From IMG/VR virus record IMGVR_UViG_2663763377_000009: a stretch of 10,931 nucleotides of DNA; one strand, written 5' to 3'. The DNA comes from a virus. Lineage: Duplodnaviria; Heunggongvirae; Uroviricota; Caudoviricetes. The notes beneath the pieces are model-generated. The model did no database searches, was not told the DNA's origin, and was given only the letters and a program-made list of their open reading frames with translations. Shown one piece after another: positions 1 to 8,846 of the stretch. Both the position numbers and the translations under genes were made by a program. Numbering within the stretch: position 1 is the first letter of the stretch; each line of letters begins with the position of its first letter.

Positions 1-1143
1 CTATGCTGTTTTGATATCTACGATAATCCAGTCTTTACCACGATCATCATTGTATCGGTCGGTCATTTTTCTGGATTTATGGCCTAACAACTTTTGCGTA
101 TCCAGACCCTGTTCCCGATATAACCGTTCTGACAGAGATCGCTGCTCATGAAATGTGGGCGCAGTTCCTTGCTCCCATTTTATGCCACATTTTTCCCGGG
201 CCTTTTTAAAAGCCGTTGTCAGAGTATTTGCAGAAACCTGGTCTCCTCTGTTTGCTTGAGAGGTAGTGTGACGGTAATGGACCAGATATTTACTAACAAC
301 AGCATCCCTGCACTGAGATATAACTTCACGAAGGGTAATATTCAGAGCATCGCATTTCAGGTTAAGCGGAATAGCAAGTTTTGAACCGGTTTTTTCCTGA
401 GTAATGTGCAACATGTCGTCCCATATATCAGAGAATTTCAAATTGCAGATATCGCCTAAACGTTGTCCAGTAACAAGAGCAAGTAGCATGCCGCATTTTA
501 AATAGGGCTGCCGTCTGCTTACGCTGTCAAATATTGCCTGCCATTCGGGCAGTGATAATCTTTGGCGGTTTACTCGATTTCGCGGTTGTTTTGTTGCCTG
601 CGCTGGGTTAAATCCTGGCGGAACATGTCCTGCGTGTTGTGCTTCTTTGAAGACGTCGATTAACACCATTCTCACGACTTGCGCCATCCTGTTATGACCT
701 TCAGCCTTTACAGCATCAATTATTTCGGCAATATCAAGTGCGGTAATATCCTTGAGGTGTTGTATTCCACAATGCTCACGGAAAAGACGAATGGGTTTGC
801 CTTTTTGCCGATAGGAGTTGGGTCTTAGTTCATTATGTTGCAGCCTGTCCTCCTGGATAGAAATATATTTATCAAGCCATTCTGTCACCGTAATGTCTGA
901 GCGCCTGCCTTTCATTCTTTCCAGACGCTCATTGACGCTTAATATTTGTCGGGTACGTTGTTCAGCAATAATGGTATTTGCTTCAGTAGCAACTTGTTTT
1001 GCTTCATTCTCATCAGTTCCTAAGCTATGAAAACGACCGGATAGTGGATGTTTGTATTGCCAATATACCTTTCCGGTTCGCTTATCTAATTTGCAATATA
1101 AATTGGGTATAGAGATTTTGTGAGATCGGGGTCTAGCAGCCAT
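1..1143 (-). CDS. int: Phage integrase, tyrosine recombinase (380 aa); stop codon at 1-3, so attP/attL should lie just outside the window
   Basis: Uninterrupted 380-aa ORF; C-terminal region carries the tyrosine-recombinase catalytic pattern (LVTGQRLGD ... HEQRSLSERLY ... LGHKSRKMTDRYNDD, i.e. R, H-x-x-R, H, Y); sits next to an overlapping xis-like gene as in lambda. Confidence 0.9.
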   Translation of the reverse strand: MAARPRSHKISIPNLYCKLDKRTGKVYWQYKHPLSGRFHSLGTDENEAKQVATEANTIIAEQRTRQILSVNERLERMKGRRSDITVTEWLDKYISIQEDRLQHNELRPNSYRQKGKPIRLFREHCGIQHLKDITALDIAEIIDAVKAEGHNRMAQVVRMVLIDVFKEAQHAGHVPPGFNPAQATKQPRNRVNRQRLSLPEWQAIFDSVSRRQPYLKCGMLLALVTGQRLGDICNLKFSDIWDDMLHITQEKTGSKLAIPLNLKCDALNITLREVISQCRDAVVSKYLVHYRHTTSQANRGDQVSANTLTTAFKKAREKCGIKWEQGTAPTFHEQRSLSERLYREQGLDTQKLLGHKSRKMTDRYNDDRGKDWIIVDIKTA

Positions 1144-3012: not shown

Positions 3013-3693
3013 TCATCGCCATTGCTCCCCAAATACAAAACCAATTTCAGCCAGTGCCTCGTCCATTTTTTCGATGAACTCCGGCACCATCTCGTCAAAA
3101 CTCGCCATGTACTTTTCATCCCGCTCAACCACGACATAATGCAGTCCTTCACGCTTCATACGCGGGTCATAGTTGGCAAAGTACCAGGCATCTTTTCGTG
3201 TTACCCACATGCTGTACTGCACCTGGGCCATGTAAGCCGACTTTATGGCCTCGAAACCACCGAGCCGGAACTTCATGAAATCCCGGGAGGTAAACGGGCA
3301 TTTCAGCTCAAGGCCATTGCCGTCACTGCATAAACCATCGGGAGAGCAGGCGGTGCGCATACTTTCGTCGCGATAGATGATCGGGGATTCAGTAACATTC
3401 ACGCCGGAAGTGAATTCAAACAGGGTTCTGGCGTCGTTCTCGTACTGTTTTCCCCAGGCCAGCGCCTTAGCATTAACTTCCGGAGCCACACCGGTGCAAA
3501 CCTCAGCCAGCAGGGTGTGGAGGTAGGACATTTTCATGTCAGGCCACTTCTTTCCGGAGCGGGGTTTTGCTATCACGTTGTGAACTTCTGAAGCGGTGAT
3601 GACGCCGAGCCGTAATTTGTGCCACGCATCATCCCCCTGTTCGACAGCTCTCACATCGATCCCGGTACGCTGCAGGATAATGTCCGGTGTCAT
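3013..3693 (-). CDS. exo: Lambda exonuclease (Red-alpha), 226 aa
   Basis: Translation [40 protein letters not shown]... matches my recollection of phage lambda Exo almost residue for residue; same length; directly downstream of bet with ATGA overlap. Confidence 0.95.
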
Positions 3694-4475
3694 GCTGCCA
3701 CCTTCTGCTCTGCGGCTTTCTGTTTCAGGAATCCAAGAGCTTTTACTGCTTCGGCCTGTGTCAGTTCTGACGATGCACGAATGTCGCGGCGAAATATCTG
3801 GGAACAGAGTGGCAATAAGTCGTCATCCCATGTTTTATCCAGGGCGATCAGCAGAGTGTTAATCTCCTGCATGGTTTCATCGTTAACCGGAGTGATGTCG
3901 CGTTCCGGCTGGCGTTCTGCAGTGTATGCAGTATTTTCGACAATGCGCTCGGCTTCATCCTTGTCATAGATACCAGCAAATCCGAAGGCCAGACGGGCAC
4001 ACTGAATCATGGCTTTATGCCGTAACATTCGTTTGGGATGCGACTGCCACGGCCCCGTGATTTCTCTGCCTTCGCGAGTTTTGAATGGTTCGCGGCGGCA
4101 TTCATCCATCCATTCGGTAACGCAGATCGGATGATTACGGTCCTTGCGGTAAATCCGGCATGTACAGGATTCATTGTCCTGTTCAAAGTCCATGCCGTCA
4201 AACTGCTGGTTTTCGTTGATGATGCGGGACCAGCCATCAACGCCCACCACCGGAACGATGCCGTTCTGCTTATCAGGGAAGGCGTAAATTTCTTTCGTCC
4301 ACGGATTAAGGCCGTATTGGTTGGCGACGATCAGCAATGCGATGAACTGCGCATCGCTGGCATCGCCTTTAAATGCTGTCTGGCGAAGAGTGGTGATCAG
4401 TTCCTGTGGGTCGACAGAATCCATGCCGACACGTTCAGCCAGCTTCCCTGCCAGCGTTGCGAGTGCTGTACTCAT
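3690..4475 (-). CDS. bet: Lambda Beta single-strand annealing protein (Red-beta), 261 aa
   Basis: Translation [37 protein letters not shown]... matches recalled lambda Bet; length 261 aa; gam-bet-exo order. Confidence 0.95.
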
Positions 4476-4480
4476 CCGTT

Positions 4481-4777
4481 TTATACCTCTGAATCAATAT
4501 CAACCTGATGGTGAGCAATGGTTTCAACCATGTACCGGATGTGTTCTGCCATGCGCTCCTGAAACTCAACATCGTCATCAAACGCACGGGTAATGGCTTT
4601 TTTGCTGGCCCCGTGGCGTTGCAAATGATCGATGCATAGCGATTCAAACAGGTGCTGGGGCAGGCCTTTTTCCATGTCGTCTGCCAGTTCTGCCTCTTTC
4701 TCTTCACGGGCGATCTGCTGGTAGTGACGCGCCCAGCTTTGAGCCTCAAGACGATCCTGAATGTAATAAGCGTTCAT
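4481..4777 (-). CDS. gam: Gam, RecBCD inhibitor (98 aa, corresponds to the short GamS form)
   Basis: Translation [44 protein letters not shown]... matches recalled lambda GamS; AGGAG 8 nt upstream; only 75 nt separate it from the upstream gene, so no long GamL form is possible here. Confidence 0.9.
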
Positions 4778-4852: not shown

Positions 4853-5059
4853 TTAGTGATTCAGGCCGTTACCGCGTCCGTCGAGAAAAACTTCCACGAG
4901 CAAATCACGGGTATAAGTGCGCTCGATGCCGCGATGCAGATAAAGCCGTCCGCGTAAATTAGCTGATGCAGTCCAGGTACCATCTTTGTGTTTGACCAGC
5001 ATTCCTGGCATGACCGCACCTCGATTAACGGTCTGCGTTCCGTAATGTTGATGAACCAT
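4853..5059 (-). CDS. Hypothetical 68-aa protein at the position lambda uses for kil (MVHQHYGTQTVNRGAVMPGMLVKHKDGTW...)
   Basis: Start chosen at the internal ATG preceded by AGGAG plus 5 nt; the longer 136-aa frame in the track begins with TTG and has no ribosome-binding site. Function is by synteny only. Confidence 0.5.
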   Translation of the reverse strand: MVHQHYGTQTVNRGAVMPGMLVKHKDGTWTASANLRGRLYLHRGIERTYTRDLLVEVFLDGRGNGLNH

Positions 5060-5336
5060 AAAAACTCCTGCCCGTAAGCTGGGCTGCTGAACATATAGAG
5101 ACTTCTGCGCGTATTCAGGCGGTGGATGGCCGCCGGTTGTCATAACTAAGCCGCCTCGTTGAAGCGACTGAGGTATGAGGTGTTGAGTTGATTTCAGCTG
5201 GTCACACCGACGTTCACACGTCCGTTTCACCCCTCGCACTCCCCGGAGCCTGCTGAAATTCAAGCTGCGGATCTAAGCGGTCATCGCAACGGTGAATCAG
5301 GTGGTTGCCGTATCGTTGTGTTGTTGCGATGAACTC

Positions 5337-5365
5337 ATTTAAAACTATAGTTGTTTTACCGTCAA
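5337..5365 (-). promoter_or_regulatory. Putative pL promoter with embedded OL operator (-35 TTGACG, 17-nt spacer, -10 TTAAAT, read on the minus strand)
   Basis: Minus-strand segment gttgTTGACGgtaaaacaactatagttTTAAATgagttc is nearly colinear with the PR segment gttgTTGACTaaaaacaaccatagtttTAATCTtgattc; both carry GTTGTT/AACAAC dyads. Confidence 0.5.
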
Positions 5366-5500
5366 CAACAAAAGTTGTTTCATTGGTTGTTTTAGATATA
5401 ACTGGTTGTATTTAGGATGGATTTATTTTGTGACTTGCATCGCATAGCGATAACTGAAGCGGGGGGTATGGTGGTTTTTTGAACGGTGTGTGATGAGGGG

Positions 5501-5531
5501 AGGCAAAAGAAAACCCGGCACGACGGCCGGG
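5501..5531 (-). terminator. Rho-independent terminator ending the cI to cassette transcript (lambda t-imm equivalent)
   Basis: 6-bp GC stem CCCGGC/GCCGGG with a 6-nt loop, followed on the minus strand by TTTTCTTTTG, 9 nt after the stop of the 168-aa gene. Confidence 0.6.
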
Positions 5532-5539
5532 GAGGGGGG

Positions 5540-6046
5540 TCATTTTAATCTATCAAGGAGTGACTCTCTTTCCTTCTTCTCTGATTCTCTTCGGTTTAAT
5601 AACGCTTTAAACTCTTGAAGCTCAACCATTATTTTATGAACGAATACACTGGTATAGAGAGAAATAAAGAGTAATCCACCTGAAATTTTTAAGACCCTGA
5701 AGAGTAGGGCTTGATCATTTGTGCTTGCTATTAACCCCAAGATTACAAACAAAGTTGAAAATACATAGAAAGCTAATAATAAAACCAATTTCAGTCTCTT
5801 GGATTTGACTATTGGCACTAATCGCCTAACCTCACTAGGGGTTAAAGACGAGTGGTCATTGGCCTCATTTGCCTTAAAAATGGCTTGTATACAATATGAT
5901 AATGGCAATTGCATGAGTCCAACCACAGCCCACGGAGCAGTTAGGACAACACCCGGTGTAATATAGCCCAATGCTGACTTGAACAAAAAGTAACCAGCAA
6001 AATAGAAGACCAACATACCAATAAGGTGGATGATGTTCGATTTCAT
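5540..6046 (-). CDS. Small integral membrane protein, 168 aa, about four predicted transmembrane helices and a charged C-terminal tail; occupies the rexB position
   Basis: Hydrophobic stretches IIHLIGMLVFYFAGYFLF, GVVLTAPWAVVGLMQLPL, LKLVLLLAFYVFSTLFVILGLIAS, LLFISLYTSVFV; strong AAGGAGG 7 nt upstream of the ATG; AT-rich codon usage unlike flanking genes; no similarity to RexB that I can see. Confidence 0.75.
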   Translation of the reverse strand: MKSNIIHLIGMLVFYFAGYFLFKSALGYITPGVVLTAPWAVVGLMQLPLSYCIQAIFKANEANDHSSLTPSEVRRLVPIVKSKRLKLVLLLAFYVFSTLFVILGLIASTNDQALLFRVLKISGGLLFISLYTSVFVHKIMVELQEFKALLNRRESEKKERESLLDRLK

Positions 6047-6067
6047 TATCGCCCTCCTTTTGGTAGG

Positions 6068-7090
6068 TTATTTTGCAACCAATTCTCCGGCATCAAGTTT
6101 TGAGAACAGCCACTTATGCATTTTTAAGAATAAATCATTTTCATCAATAATGCCATTGTTATATTCAACGCTAATTTTTCCGGATAATTTTATCTCTTTT
6201 CCCGTTATTTCCCCACCGCCTTGAAGTTTGATGCTAATATCATCCTCATCTAGATGTCGTAGTGAGGTAGCAATACTGTCTATAACAGCTTGACCGCTAT
6301 CATTTGTTTTTCTGAAGTATGTAATCTCGAGGCTTACTTGTAAATTGGCCTCATCTAATGAATCTTTAATGTTTATATCATTTGCCCAGTTATCGCCAAA
6401 AAATGCTTTTAGTAGCGCACCTCCTTTCCCTATTGGGCGGTATTTTATTGTCTTCACCGAACCATTTGAAAAGGAGGGTGTTTGGTTCTCTGAATTTTTA
6501 ACTTCTGAAGTAATGGGTAATCCACCAATTTTTATGCTCTTGGCTGGTGCTTTCTCCATTTTTTTCATCGTTTCTTCGGATGGCTTATCTTGAAGCATTA
6601 ACACAGATTCTTTTTCATCTGTGAATGTATTAATTAGCCAATTCAAATGCGCCTCAAGCTCCCTTGCTCGAAGCGATGTGGATTGAACGATCATGACATG
6701 GTTGTTTAGTACACCAAAATATAAAATTGAATCTACAAACTCTCTTTTTTTGTCACTACGTTTATCTCCATCAATAATTATATCATTAGACGTGATGGAG
6801 TTAATGTCATAAAATTTAACATTATCACTAAGCTCTAATAGAGACTGGCTTTTGTCTTTTTCAAATAAAACCAGTTGCCCAAAAAGTATAGTTTTGTATG
6901 TGTCGCTTTTATTTAAGAAACGACACCCCGAATTTTCATCTGAAGGTGTTATTTTTTCTTGTCTACTAAGTACTTTTTCTGCAACGCCGCCCTCACCTAT
7001 AATACTAAGTAGTATGTTTTGTAATGATGATTTGCTGTGTGGGATTACTGCTTTTTTATAATGAACGACTTTTTGTCTGTTATCTTTCAT
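6068..7090 (-). CDS. Unknown soluble protein, 340 aa; occupies the rexA position downstream of the repressor
   Basis: Long uninterrupted ORF, Lys/Asp/Asn/Ile-rich, no catalytic motif recognised; separated by 21 nt from the downstream membrane protein gene, suggesting one operon. Confidence 0.75.
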   Translation of the reverse strand: MKDNRQKVVHYKKAVIPHSKSSLQNILLSIIGEGGVAEKVLSRQEKITPSDENSGCRFLNKSDTYKTILFGQLVLFEKDKSQSLLELSDNVKFYDINSITSNDIIIDGDKRSDKKREFVDSILYFGVLNNHVMIVQSTSLRARELEAHLNWLINTFTDEKESVLMLQDKPSEETMKKMEKAPAKSIKIGGLPITSEVKNSENQTPSFSNGSVKTIKYRPIGKGGALLKAFFGDNWANDINIKDSLDEANLQVSLEITYFRKTNDSGQAVIDSIATSLRHLDEDDISIKLQGGGEITGKEIKLSGKISVEYNNGIIDENDLFLKMHKWLFSKLDAGELVAK

Positions 7091-7147
7091 TGCTATAGTC
7101 CAACTAGTATTGAATAAATAAACACAGTAAAGACATAAAAATTTCTT

Positions 7148-7177
7148 ATAGCTACCGATAACGTAATCGGTAGCTAT
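7148..7177. promoter_or_regulatory. Perfect 12-bp inverted repeat ATAGCTACCGAT (loop aacgta) ATCGGTAGCTAT between the repressor gene and the cassette
   Basis: Read directly: 7148-7159 is the reverse complement of 7166-7177. On the minus-strand RNA the hairpin is followed by AAGAAATTTTTAT, so it may be a partial terminator or attenuator, or else a protein-binding palindrome. Confidence 0.4.
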
Positions 7178-7212
7178 TACAAATCAACCAAAGGTAATTC
7201 TTTACATACTAC

Positions 7213-7902
7213 CTACCCATGCTTCCTGTAGGTCTGCGGCATGCTCCCAATAACTTTCCCGAAGATAAACACCCGGTTCATCTCGTCTTTCTCAATTGGG
7301 TCCCACGGCGAGTAGCTCTTGTTATCAGAGATAACCAGTAGCTTATCCTTCATCATTTGCAGGCGCTTTACATGGGCTGTGTCGTCGTACAGAAACGCAT
7401 AGATACCATCACCGTCGAAAGATTTAACTGTGATATCAACGAACAGCAGATCACCTGGTTCGATCGTTCCTGACATGCTGTCACCACGCACGTTAATGAT
7501 GCGGATATTTTCCGCCTTCCTACCATCGAACATGTGACGAGCATCGTCAAACGAGTACTCAACCGAGCGTAGAACTTCTACAAACTCACGGTTGATGACT
7601 CCCGGCCCAGCACTGACTTCTATATCAAGAACGTCAATCTTAAAGTATTTGGAATGGCTGACAGTTGATAGTATTGGTTGCACTGTACTGTCTGACATAT
7701 TTCCAACGCCAGAAGATAACCATTCTGCGCGCACACCCAAAGCGTTCGCGATCTCCACGATTTTAGTTGTTTGGTTAGCTTTCCCTGTTTCGATTTTCTG
7801 AATAGCAGCTTGGCTAACCCCGACCAAATCCCCAAGCGCCTTTTGTGTAAGGCCTCGCGCTAATCTGGCTTCTTTAAGTCTTTCTGAGAGTGTTGTTTTC
7901 AT
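7213..7902 (-). CDS. cI-like prophage repressor, 229 aa: N-terminal HTH (XRE type) plus C-terminal S24 LexA-like autopeptidase domain
   Basis: HTH region LTQKALGDLVGVSQAAIQKIETGK; S24 signature GDSM ... VKRL (Ser/Lys dyad); divergent from a Cro-like gene across an operator region. Start set at 7902 because the 22-codon extension to 7968 would run through the PR promoter. Confidence 0.85.
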   Translation of the reverse strand: MKTTLSERLKEARLARGLTQKALGDLVGVSQAAIQKIETGKANQTTKIVEIANALGVRAEWLSSGVGNMSDSTVQPILSTVSHSKYFKIDVLDIEVSAGPGVINREFVEVLRSVEYSFDDARHMFDGRKAENIRIINVRGDSMSGTIEPGDLLFVDITVKSFDGDGIYAFLYDDTAHVKRLQMMKDKLLVISDNKSYSPWDPIEKDEMNRVFIFGKVIGSMPQTYRKHG

Positions 7903-7908
7903 AGTCCA

Positions 7909-7937
7909 AATGTACAACCAAGGTTTTATTCCATCAA
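7909..7937 (-). promoter_or_regulatory. Putative PRM (-35 TTGATG, 17-nt spacer, -10 TACATT on the minus strand), predicted start site at or beside the cI ATG (leaderless)
   Basis: Hexamers read from the sequence; the -10 ends 6 nt before the ATG at 7902, and there is no Shine-Dalgarno, mirroring lambda PRM/cI. Confidence 0.4.
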
Positions 7938-7943
7938 ACGAAA

Positions 7944-7979
7944 ATGGTTGTTGACTAAAAACAACCATAGTTTTAATCT
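7944..7979 (+). promoter_or_regulatory. PR promoter (-35 TTGACT 7951-7956, -10 TAATCT 7974-7979) overlapping a 9-bp-arm dyad operator ATGGTTGTT (gactaaa) AACAACCAT
   Basis: Inverted repeat 7944-7952 / 7960-7968 read directly; 17-nt spacer; GGAGG 5 nt before the ATG at 8007. Confidence 0.55.
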
Positions 7980-8006
7980 TGATTCAAATTAACCACGGAG
8001 GTTGTT

Positions 8007-8237
8007 ATGAACCCAGCTATCAAAACAGCGATCAATATCGTTGGTTCACAAAAGAAACTGGGCGCTGCCTGCGAAGTTTCACAGCAGGCCGTCTATAAGT
8101 GGCTTCACAACAAAGCAAAGGTATCCCCTGAACATGTCGGCAGCATTGTTACGGCTACTGGTGGAGTAGTGAAGGCATACCAGATTCGCCCGGATCTTCC
8201 GAAGTTGTTTCCACACACCGAAAAGAACGCAGCTTAA
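8007..8237 (+). CDS. Cro-like HTH regulator of the YdaS family (76 aa)
   Basis: Divergent from the repressor; motif AINIVGSQKKLGAACEVSQQAVYKWL ... ATGG resembles YdaS-type small HTH proteins of E. coli prophages. Confidence 0.8.
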   Translation: MNPAIKTAINIVGSQKKLGAACEVSQQAVYKWLHNKAKVSPEHVGSIVTATGGVVKAYQIRPDLPKLFPHTEKNAA

Positions 8238-8249
8238 ATTTCCATTTCA

Positions 8250-8262
8250 CGCTCTTTAACAA
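8250..8262 (+). promoter_or_regulatory. boxA element CGCTCTTTAACAA (nutR-like position between the cro and cII analogues)
   Basis: Matches the boxA consensus (rrn boxA GCTCTTTAACAA; lambda nut boxA CGCTCTTA...). No GC-rich boxB-like hairpin is evident directly downstream. Confidence 0.5.
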
Positions 8263-8306
8263 TAAGCAATCAACTTAACAGTCAATTCAAACTAAAGGAG
8301 TCAATT

Positions 8307-8846
8307 ATGCAACCACTTACATACCAACAGACTAGCGGATTTAGCCCGACTGCGGTGATAAATCGTTCTCAAACAAAACAGGTGCCAGGCCACGAAAAAA
8401 TCCGTGATGCCGTCCGCGCCTGGTCGGCTGAAGATAATCAGGATGTCGTTGCCACACTCATTGTGAATGAGTATCGGGAGCAGGGCGGCGGCGCCATCGA
8501 TTTCCCTGATGATGTCAGCCGTGCACGCCAGAAGCTGTTCCGCTTCCTCGATAACAAATTCGATTCTGAAAAATACCGAAATAACGTGCGTGAACTGACC
8601 CCGGCAATTCTGGCGGTACTACCGCTGGAATATCGCGGTTACCTGGTTGAGCAGGATAGCTTCATGGCTAGGTTGGCTGAAATGGAAAAGGAACTCAGTG
8701 AGGCAAAACAGGCTGTCATTCTCAACGCACCACGCCACCAGAAACTGAAGGAGATGAGTGAAGGTATTGTGTCGATGTTTCGTGTGGACCCGGATCTGGC
8801 TGGTCCATTGATGGCGATGGTTACCACCATGTTGGGGGCAATATGA
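8307..8846 (+). CDS. YdaT-family protein (179 aa), cII functional analogue candidate
   Basis: Motifs EYREQGGGAIDFP and LTPAILAVLPLEYRGYL resemble recalled YdaT of the Rac and CP-933P prophages; located where lambda has cII; AAGGAG 6 nt upstream. Confidence 0.7.
   Translation: MQPLTYQQTSGFSPTAVINRSQTKQVPGHEKIRDAVRAWSAEDNQDVVATLIVNEYREQGGGAIDFPDDVSRARQKLFRFLDNKFDSEKYRNNVRELTPAILAVLPLEYRGYLVEQDSFMARLAEMEKELSEAKQAVILNAPRHQKLKEMSEGIVSMFRVDPDLAGPLMAMVTTMLGAI

Follow-up and report, generated by a model that had tools for sequence, protein, structure and literature searches.

A 434-type operator shared by PR and a proposed PL probably flanks the immunity region of a lambda-like Escherichia coli prophage

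The DNA analysed here, a window of 10,931 nucleotides (virus record IMGVR_UViG_2663763377_000009, Caudoviricetes), is very probably the early region of a lambda-like E. coli prophage in which two look-alike segments are the PL and PR promoters, both controlled by cI through operators of the 434 type. The evidence computed here is the sequence match between the segments, the enrichment of the operator motif, the spacing of its sites, the co-variation of operators and repressor recognition helix, and the position of the junction at which operator blocks have been swapped between phages. The layout is lambdoid. Indeed, cI and cro are divergent and some 100 bp apart, OR3, OR2 and OR1 (starting at 7914, 7938 and 7961) lie over PR and PRM, and a second operator cluster lies over a leftward promoter heading the recombination and integration operon. 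The stretch from 5200 to 8300 is 100% identical to a prophage of E. coli strain 317, and 2,216 genomes match the region, many of them sharing the OL-cI-OR-cro blocks. We found nothing in the literature on the ACAAC-N4-GTTKT operators of this phage group.

PR occupies 7951-7979 of the plus strand, which reads TTGACTAAAAACAACCATAGTTTTAATCT, and consists of a -35 TTGACT (7951-7956), a 17-nt spacer and a -10 TAATCT (7974-7979). The left segment, 5337-5365, reads TTGACGGTAAAACAACTATAGTTTTAAAT as its reverse complement; the proposed PL on this minus strand has TTGACG as -35 (5365-5360), a 17-nt spacer and TTAAAT as -10 (5342-5337). These sequences are exactly as the first-pass annotation had read them, and the spacer core that it described as shared is longer than claimed, with 18 of 19 bases equal in AAAACAAC(C/T)ATAGTTTTAA (7958-7976 against the reverse complement of 5339-5357). 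When up to five mismatches are allowed, this 19-mer is found at only two places within the window, PR and the left element, which form the only inverted pair of their kind there. The core is nevertheless offset by 1 nt relative to the -35 hexamer between the two copies, and gaps of 2 nt and 1 nt, one per segment, are required for the optimal alignment. Because of this shift, the description of PR and PL as near-duplicate modules holds for the operator, but not for the whole 29-mer in register.

The same annotation had pointed to GTTGTT/AACAAC dyads at both loci. They are present: a search of the whole window for GTTGTT-N7-9-AACAAC returns exactly two places, 7947-7965 (N7) and 5350-5369 (N8), for a chance expectation of 0.01. 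The dyad is not the operator itself, however. It is made of the inner halves of O2 and O1, thus spanning two adjacent operators, and we discarded it as the binding unit since its spacing is N7 at OR and N8 at OL, whereas that of ACAAC-N4-GTTKT is fixed everywhere. The latter, a 14-bp palindrome, is the operator unit at both OL and OR. With at most one mismatch it gives 12 strand-matches in the window, that is six places, against 1.7 matches expected, and the exact sites are four, solely OL1, OL2, OR3 and OR1. The same four come out on top, with scores of 19-22 that were never reached in shuffles, when the window is scored with a weight matrix built from the Klebsiella and Providencia relatives alone (leave-genus-out). 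The proposal of a common operator motif at PR and at the left element is thus borne out.

On the left side, OL1 (5341-5354, 14-bp core ACAACTATAGTTTT on the minus strand) is the best matrix match of the window, at 22.2; it lies inside the PL spacer, adjoining the -10, and is kept in relatives. OL2 (5365-5378, core ACAACAAAAGTTGT, score 19.2) is found 24 bp from OL1 and adjoins the PL -35. Further out, the minus-strand segment ACAACCAGTTATAT (5396-5409) might be a weak OL3. It has one good half-site only, an ACAACCA half-site at this place is conserved in the three-genus alignment, and its distance from OL2, 31 bp, is also the OL3-OL2 distance of phage 434. On the right side, OR3 (7914-7927, ACAACCAAGGTTTT, score 19.2) overlaps the spacer and the -10 of PRM, and OR1 (7961-7974, ACAACCATAGTTTT, score 21.3) lies inside the PR spacer, adjoining its -10. 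The weaker OR2 (7938-7951, ACGAAAATGGTTGT, score 5.5, rank 9), 23 bp from OR1 and 24 bp from OR3, adjoins the -35 of PRM as well as that of PR. Nowhere is the three-genus OR alignment more conserved than here, and eight related loci carry ACGAA-N4-GTTGT at the position of OR2. As isolated sites, both OR2 and the candidate OL3 (-7.5) score poorly with the matrix.

A possible fourth operator, ACCACGGAGGTTGT (7992-8005), has one mismatch to the motif and wraps the cro ribosome-binding site; seven of the 17 related loci have an exact ACAAC/AAAAC-GGAG-GTTKT at 27-31 bp beyond OR1. Another operator-like site, at 6882-6895 inside the RexA-like gene discussed below, is probably due to chance, because the hetero-immune phage Perceval shares that gene at ~97% identity.

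The presumed ligand of these sites is the cI repressor (229 aa; 7213-7902, minus strand), which has an HTH_3 N-terminal domain and a Peptidase_S24 autocleavage domain (Pfam, 5e-13 and 1e-18) and carries the Ala-Gly, GDSM and VKRL motifs. The closest solved relative of its N-terminal domain is the phage 434 repressor (PDB 1per, E 6e-10). Its recognition helix, VSQAAIQKIE, recurs unchanged in the cI of the Klebsiella and Providencia relatives, and Perceval has another one. The leader, the terminator and most of cI are common to the window and to Perceval and 4A7 (in Perceval the cassette is shared too), but the cI of these two phages differs in residues 1-45, and TTGCTATT-type sites replace those of OR and of a 96-bp OL block (5330-5425), a similar-sized block with other operators standing in its place. 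The DNA flanking the swapped blocks is 96-97% identical between these two phages and the window. In Perceval the TTGCTATT sites lie at 2647 and 2672 (OL) and at 5249 and 5274 (OR); an extra copy at 3024, in the shared membrane-protein gene, has its equivalent in the window at 5725. In hetero-immune phages, cro is swapped along with the cI N-terminus and OR. Among 50,697 phage records, the OR/cI-N-terminal block and the OL block are carried by the same eight. The left element had been proposed to define the immunity specificity of the phage, and the joint change of the OL block, OR and cI residues 1-45 in Perceval and 4A7, together with this co-occurrence in 8 of 8 records, supports this.

The arrangement extends well beyond E. 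coli. We compared 17 phage or prophage loci that encode the helix SQAAIQK(I/L)E and come from about 12 genera of enterobacteria. In 14 of them the repressor gene lies between two OL sites spaced 23-24 bp and two OR sites spaced 47-48 bp, with OL-OR distances ranging from 920 to 2686 bp. The OL1-OL2 spacing is 24 bp in 13 of 14 loci and 23 bp in the remaining one, and the OR3-OR1 spacing is 47-48 bp in all related loci. Positions and spacing are thus kept across genera while the surrounding DNA diverges.

The putative PRM (7909-7937, minus strand) is composed of a -35 TTGATG (7937-7932), a 17-nt spacer and a -10 TACATT (7914-7909). By analogy with lambda and CP-933P (PMC8630535), its transcript may start at the cI ATG (7902), which would make the cI mRNA leaderless. 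On the other side of OR, the cro-type regulator (8007-8237, plus strand) belongs to the YdaS family (Pfam PF15943, E 4e-17; phrog_35, transcriptional repressor), and the CII of the window to the YdaT family.

How secure is the leftward promoter? PR and PL are both absent from the results of a generic promoter scan of the window, since neither -10 hexamer satisfies the scanner rule: TAATCT has three of six matches, and TTAAAT lacks the usual A at position 2. The hexamer at the PR -10 position is TATTCT in the Klebsiella phage and TATTAT in the Providencia one. One could thus imagine that OL1 and OL2 are true repressor sites, serving mainly for long-range cooperation with OR, but that the main leftward promoter uses another -10 register or another start. 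The 1-nt shift of the core compared with PR could be quoted in its favor, as could the -10 variants of relatives, such as TTTAAT and TTATAT, and the register is indeed uncertain by 1 nt, since an 18-nt spacer with TAAATG can also be read. We nonetheless consider this unlikely. The TTGAC-N17 -10 arrangement recurs in the corresponding position of the Klebsiella and Providencia phages, and in 14 of 14 loci from other genera TTGAC is invariant and followed, 16-18 nt downstream, by a T/A-rich hexamer. Homology with the hetero-immune phages resumes at 5329-5330, 7 nt past the proposed -10, and this swap junction coincides with the predicted +1 of PL, near 5329-5330. Perceval has TTGATA-17-TATTAT at the same position, with homology again resuming 7 nt after the -10, and the scan detected no better leftward promoter between 5330 and 5540. 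The swap junction and the recurrence of the arrangement in other genera both support a leftward promoter at 5337-5365, where the first-pass annotation had placed it. The rightward TTGCGA-16-TATAGT (5324-5351) listed by the scanner was rejected, as Perceval lacks an equivalent of its -10, which is part of the swapped block.

It is less likely still that the shared sites serve mainly the YdaS-type Cro or some other regulator, cI acting on a different motif. The swapping of cro together with the cI N-terminus and OR is compatible with this, and for that reason co-variation alone cannot tell cI from Cro. On the other hand, ACAA...TTGT is the type of site bound by the 434 repressor, the closest solved homologue of the cI domain. 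Control by Cro is in any case not truly exclusive of control by cI, because both proteins act at the same operators in lambda and 434, and in CP-933P. The least probable explanation, to which we give almost no weight, is that of a similarity without regulatory function, produced by chance or by local duplication in the recent past. Short repeats are indeed frequent in this AT-rich region, yet among 300 dinucleotide-preserving shuffles only one had a 19-nt inverted pair with one mismatch or none. Moreover, the conservation of site position and spacing across ~12 genera, despite diverging surroundings, and the co-variation of the sites with the repressor recognition helix effectively refute it.

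Under the preferred explanation, control by cI at both promoters, the switch would operate by analogy with those of lambda and phage 434. In the lysogen, cI dimers would bind the ACAAC-N4-GTTKT palindromes; OR1 and OR2, which cover PR, would keep cro off, and OL1 and OL2, which cover PL, would silence the kil-gam-bet-exo-xis-int operon. As OR2 adjoins the PRM -35, its occupancy could activate cI transcription, and OR3 would cover PRM. The PRM transcript would comprise cI and the downstream two-gene cassette and end at the terminator at 5514-5531. Looping between OL and OR over 2.6 kb may be part of this scheme. Upon DNA damage, cleavage of cI would free PR and PL together.

The genes found downstream of PL are kil, gam, bet, exo, xis and int. 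No N-like ORF was found between 5330 and kil, and none is annotated in relatives. We saw no clear nutL or put-like element after PL and no boxA in the left leader; a boxA consensus is present only after cro, at 8250-8262. The apparent lack of N and nutL counts against the preferred explanation. The PL leader occurs only within this phage group, and a distant BLAST with it gave no HK022 match. A 15-nt element is common to the PL leader and the end of cro. A permissive Rfam scan of the whole window produced two sub-threshold, irrelevant matches only, and a direct repeat (5445-5469 and 7153-7177, 72% identity) was treated as chance.

Between cI and OL lies a two-gene cassette, co-oriented with cI and followed by a terminator, which had been likened to rexAB in lambda. 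The position is indeed the same, as cassette and terminator are both inside the interval from the cI stop to OL and a Klebsiella relative has annotated rexA and rexB in this slot. The first gene (6068-7090, minus strand) encodes a 340-aa protein with a predicted RexA/RdgC-like fold. The second (5540-6046, minus strand) encodes a 168-aa membrane protein (phrog_16807, function without assignment) with at least three hydrophobic stretches by Kyte-Doolittle, and a fourth near residues 33-57 by eye only; it could be a RexB-like partner, by position and hydrophobicity only. Its homologues, at 36-39% identity, follow the homologue of the 340-aa protein in Methylobacter and Serratia. At the sequence level the cassette proteins do not belong to the RexA or RexB families: Pfam and PADLOC searches gave 0 matches, a sequence-level PDB search found nothing, hhalign against RexA was negative (probability 0.15), and BLASTP against RexB returned only a 28-residue hydrophobic match, with no real similarity. 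Foldseek against viral models retrieved uncharacterised proteins and a weak RdgC match only. The intrinsic terminator (5514-5531, minus strand; six G-C pairs, then TTTTCTTTTG) closes the cI-cassette transcript just before OL. Homology with phages bearing other cassettes stops at 5531, and by sequence comparison the terminator is part of the backbone, not of the cassette. The slot itself, 5532-7212, is variable, as phages of the same immunity carry other accessory cassettes there.

Among the closest known systems is phage 434, whose repressor also has a LexA-type S24 C-terminal domain and whose 14-bp palindromes, with outer ACAA...TTGT and a variable centre, are likewise clustered at both OR and OL. 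ACAAC-N4-GTTKT fits the 434-type ACAA-N6-TT(G/T)T (the annotated 434 sites being ACAA-N6-TTGT), and the spacings are similar, 22/23 bp at OR and 23/31 bp at OL in 434 against 23/24 bp and 24 bp in the window. However, the recognition helix is QAAIQK in the window and QQSIEQ in 434, differing at four of six positions, and hetero-immunity between the two phages is expected from sequence. The window operators also have a fixed C as fifth base and several AAAAC half-sites, its PR is built as in lambda (-35 between O2 and O1) and not as annotated for 434, its Cro is of the YdaS family and not a 434-Cro homologue, no N gene was found, and its cI is apparently leaderless.

With lambda, the window shares PL and PR as near-copies, with O1 and O2 over each and the -35 adjoining O2, an OR2 that would be centred ~42 bp upstream of the leaderless cI start, the two-gene cassette and terminator between cI and OL, and an OL-OR distance of 2.6 kb. 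It differs in operator sequence and in the DNA-binding fold of the repressor, as lambda cI has no HTH_3/434-type domain, and in its cassette proteins, the larger of which is RexA-like in predicted fold only. The experimentally studied prophage CP-933P (PaaR2/YdaS/YdaT; PR933P, PRM933P, PL933P) also has a YdaS-family Cro, a YdaT-family CII and a two-gene cassette between the repressor gene and PL (PMC8630535). PL and PR of this prophage have identical -35 and -10 hexamers, its OL sites resemble its OR sites, the repressor, made from a leaderless mRNA, represses both promoters, and repressor and YdaS-type Cro act at the same operators (PMC8630535). In contrast to the window, it has another repressor, its operators are 18-bp palindromes (consensus GTTTAGTAA), its cassette is a toxin-antitoxin pair, and the prophage is cryptic (PMC8630535).

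Beyond this, we propose, tentatively and at less than even odds, two readings: a divergent Rex-like exclusion system and a fourth operator at the cro ribosome-binding site. In the first, the cassette could encode an unannotated Rex-like exclusion pair, made up of the 340-aa protein and the membrane protein, and would be a mobile two-gene unit occupying prophage 'moron' slots. In E. coli, Methylobacter and Pseudomonas the slot would be the one following cI, in Serratia the one separating Q from the lysis genes. If the second reading is true, cro would be under an extra block (ACAAC-GGAG-GTTKT, 27-31 bp after OR1) absent from lambda and 434.

In conclusion, the window belongs to a well-known kind of system; the finding, though correct, is an ordinary one and leaves the view of how such switches work unchanged. 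What it provides is the operator code (ACAAC-N4-GTTKT), the site map and the promoter layout of an immunity type widespread among E. coli prophages and present in roughly a dozen further genera of enterobacteria. The slot for variable accessory cassettes is delimited as well, at 5532-7212, and the code can be used for predicting which prophages are co-immune.

The near-duplication of the two early promoter modules flanking the immunity region, noted in the first-pass annotation, was confirmed, and its interpretation was supported after correction of the operator parse. By ORF map and family searches, the window is a lambda-like early region. The leftward genes int (1-1143, minus strand), xis, exo (3013-3693), bet (3690-4475), gam (4481-4777) and kil (about 4853-5059) are followed by a leader of ~270 nt and the disputed promoter-like segment, the proposed PL (5337-5365, minus strand). 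Then come a terminator (5514-5531), the two leftward cassette genes, encoding a membrane protein (5540-6046) and a larger, possibly RexA-like protein (6068-7090), a cI-type repressor with HTH_3 and Peptidase_S24 domains (7213-7902), a 104-bp cI-cro intergenic region, a YdaS-family cro (8007-8237), a YdaT-family cII (8307-8846), and O and P. Window 5200-8300 is matched at 100% identity by a prophage in E. coli strain 317.

The hexamer pairs of PR (plus strand, 7951-7979) and of 5337-5365 are both present as described, and so is their common core. The shared stretch comprises 19 nt, AAAACAAC(C/T)ATAGTTTTAA, with 18 of 19 bases matching; it is the sole inverted pair of such quality in the window, and one of 300 dinucleotide shuffles gave its equal. 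Likewise, GTTGTT-N7-9-AACAAC occurs in the window at exactly these two places, against 0.01 expected. What had been overlooked is a one-base shift: the distance of the core from the -35 hexamer is not the same in both copies. The GTTGTT…AACAAC dyad is not itself the operator unit; it is composed of the inner halves of O2 and O1, the second and first sites on either side. Since O1 and O2 lie 23 bp apart at OR and 24 bp apart at OL, the spacing within the dyad is 7 at the former and 8 at the latter.

Among proteins of solved structure, the phage 434 repressor comes nearest to the cI N-terminal domain (E 6e-10). A fully annotated 434 record gives six operators, all 14-mers of the form ACAA-N6-TTGT, with intervals of 22/23 bp in the OR cluster and 23/31 bp in the OL cluster. 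The unit found here, ACAAC-N4-GTTKT, matches it in kind. With at most one mismatch it gave 12 strand-matches in the window, corresponding to six places, against 1.7 matches expected. Four predicted sites are exact: OL1 (5341-5354), OL2 (5365-5378), OR3 (7914-7927) and OR1 (7961-7974). The same four rank top in the window (scores 19-22, shuffles giving none) with a weight matrix trained on the Klebsiella and Providencia relatives only. OR2 (7938-7951, ACGAAAATGGTTGT) is weak in isolation (score 5.5); however, its distance is 23 bp to OR1 and 24 bp to OR3, no other part of the three-genus OR alignment is as well conserved, and its form, ACGAA-N4-GTTGT, recurs in 8 related loci.

Hetero-immune relatives, co-occurrence, a shared helix and loci from many genera support the proposal that a single repressor would serve OL and OR. 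Phages Perceval (L001) and 4A7 share the left operon, leader and terminator of the window at 96-97% identity, and Perceval the cassette too. In both, OR is replaced, together with a 96-bp block equivalent to 5330-5425; both replacements bear TTGCTATT repeats with 25 bp spacing, and the sole further copy lies inside the shared membrane-protein gene. Perceval cI is identical to that of the window from about residue 46 and differs through helices 1-3 only (window 7770-7902 vs Perceval 5072-5204), with SGVAQPTIWRL in place of VGVSQAAIQKI: a naturally occurring swap of helices. Separately from this region, and 2.4 kb away, the OL block was exchanged as well. The OR/cI-N-terminal block occurs in eight of 50,697 phage records, and those eight are also the ones that carry the OL block. 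The Klebsiella and Providencia repressors, 78% and 51% identical overall to the window cI, have an identical recognition helix and identical operators. A pattern scan of species-representative genomes recovered loci in Buttiauxella, Xenorhabdus, Kosakonia, Serratia, Klebsiella, Izhakiella, Enterobacter, Morganella, Rouxiella and others, which brings the number of loci bearing the helix SQAAIQK(I/L)E to 17 when the window and two phage loci are counted in. The repressor gene has a pair of sites on each flank in 14 of these, spaced 23-24 bp at OL and 47-48 bp at OR, with OL1 and OR1 920-2686 bp from each other; among the remaining three, at least one is cut off at the locus end.

Two further operator-like elements were noticed. 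A palindrome around the cro Shine-Dalgarno sequence (7992-8005, ACCACGGAGGTTGT) may serve cro as a fourth operator; exact ACAAC/AAAAC-GGAG-GTTKT is present 27-31 bp past OR1 in 7 of the 17 loci, in other genera. Within the RexA-like gene, the operator matrix gives 6882-6895 (AAAAGTATAGTTTT) a score of 13.6 (0.055 expected); since hetero-immune Perceval shares the gene at ~97% identity, this is probably a chance match.

The kept hexamer layout and a homology junction at the expected start point support 5337-5365 as a leftward promoter. All 14 related loci retain TTGAC with a T/A-rich hexamer 16-18 nt further on, and Perceval has TTGATA-17-TATTAT at the equivalent position. In the hetero-immune phages homology resumes at 5329-5330, seven bases beyond the -10, the expected +1; the PL register carries a one-base uncertainty. 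The -10 hexamers are weak (TAATCT for PR, TTAAAT for PL), which is why both promoters are absent from generic scanner output. The stretch from PL to kil yielded no N gene, and an obvious N/nut system is lacking. A perfect boxA consensus, CGCTCTTTAACAA, lies past cro at 8250-8262, and a 15-nt element, CGCAGCTT(G/A)AATTTC, is common to the PL leader (5255-5269, minus strand) and the end of cro (8228-8242, plus strand).

In phages of the same immunity, homology stops at 5531 and resumes at 7213, and the variable slot (5532-7212) therefore extends from the cI stop codon to the stem of the backbone terminator. In other phages and genomes with this immunity it is empty or holds HipA + DUF3037, a DUF6932 pair or an ASCH pair (GevT/GevA); a Klebsiella phage relative has annotated rexA/rexB there. 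Homologues of the larger cassette protein occur in Methylobacter, Pseudomonas and Serratia, each with a protein of ~170-180 aa encoded next to it on the 3′ side; the Methylobacter and Serratia partners are 36-39% identical to the 168-aa membrane protein of the window. The Methylobacter and Pseudomonas pairs lie immediately 3′ of an S24-type repressor gene or fragment. The comparison with rexAB holds for certain by position, and the likeness is possibly structural too. The stretch from the cI stop to the 340-aa gene contains a 22-nt perfect-centre inverted repeat (7141-7184, 86% complementary), a hairpin without an adjoining T-run that belongs to the cassette, not the backbone.

By analogy with lambda, with 434 and with the CP-933P switch, which has been studied experimentally (PMC8630535), cI dimers at OR1/OR2 and OL1/OL2 would silence PR and PL. 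OR2 adjoins a candidate PRM, the cI promoter (TTGATG-17-TACATT, 7937-7909, minus strand), whose predicted start at the cI ATG would yield a leaderless message and place the OR2 centre near -42. The repressor and cassette genes would be cotranscribed, ending at 5514-5531, and OL-OR looping across 2.6 kb is possible. The S24 domain has the usual Ala-Gly, Ser and Lys motifs, and induction via RecA-stimulated cleavage is therefore expected. An in-frame ATG at 7968, upstream of 7902, would give a 251-aa cI, as annotated in the GenBank relative PhiR5_1; a gene starting there would run through the operators. Starting at 7902, the protein has 229 aa, and this choice is consistent with both the domain alignment and a PRM transcript that lacks a leader.

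In conclusion, the arrangement is a textbook one, and the immunity type is common yet previously uncharted.
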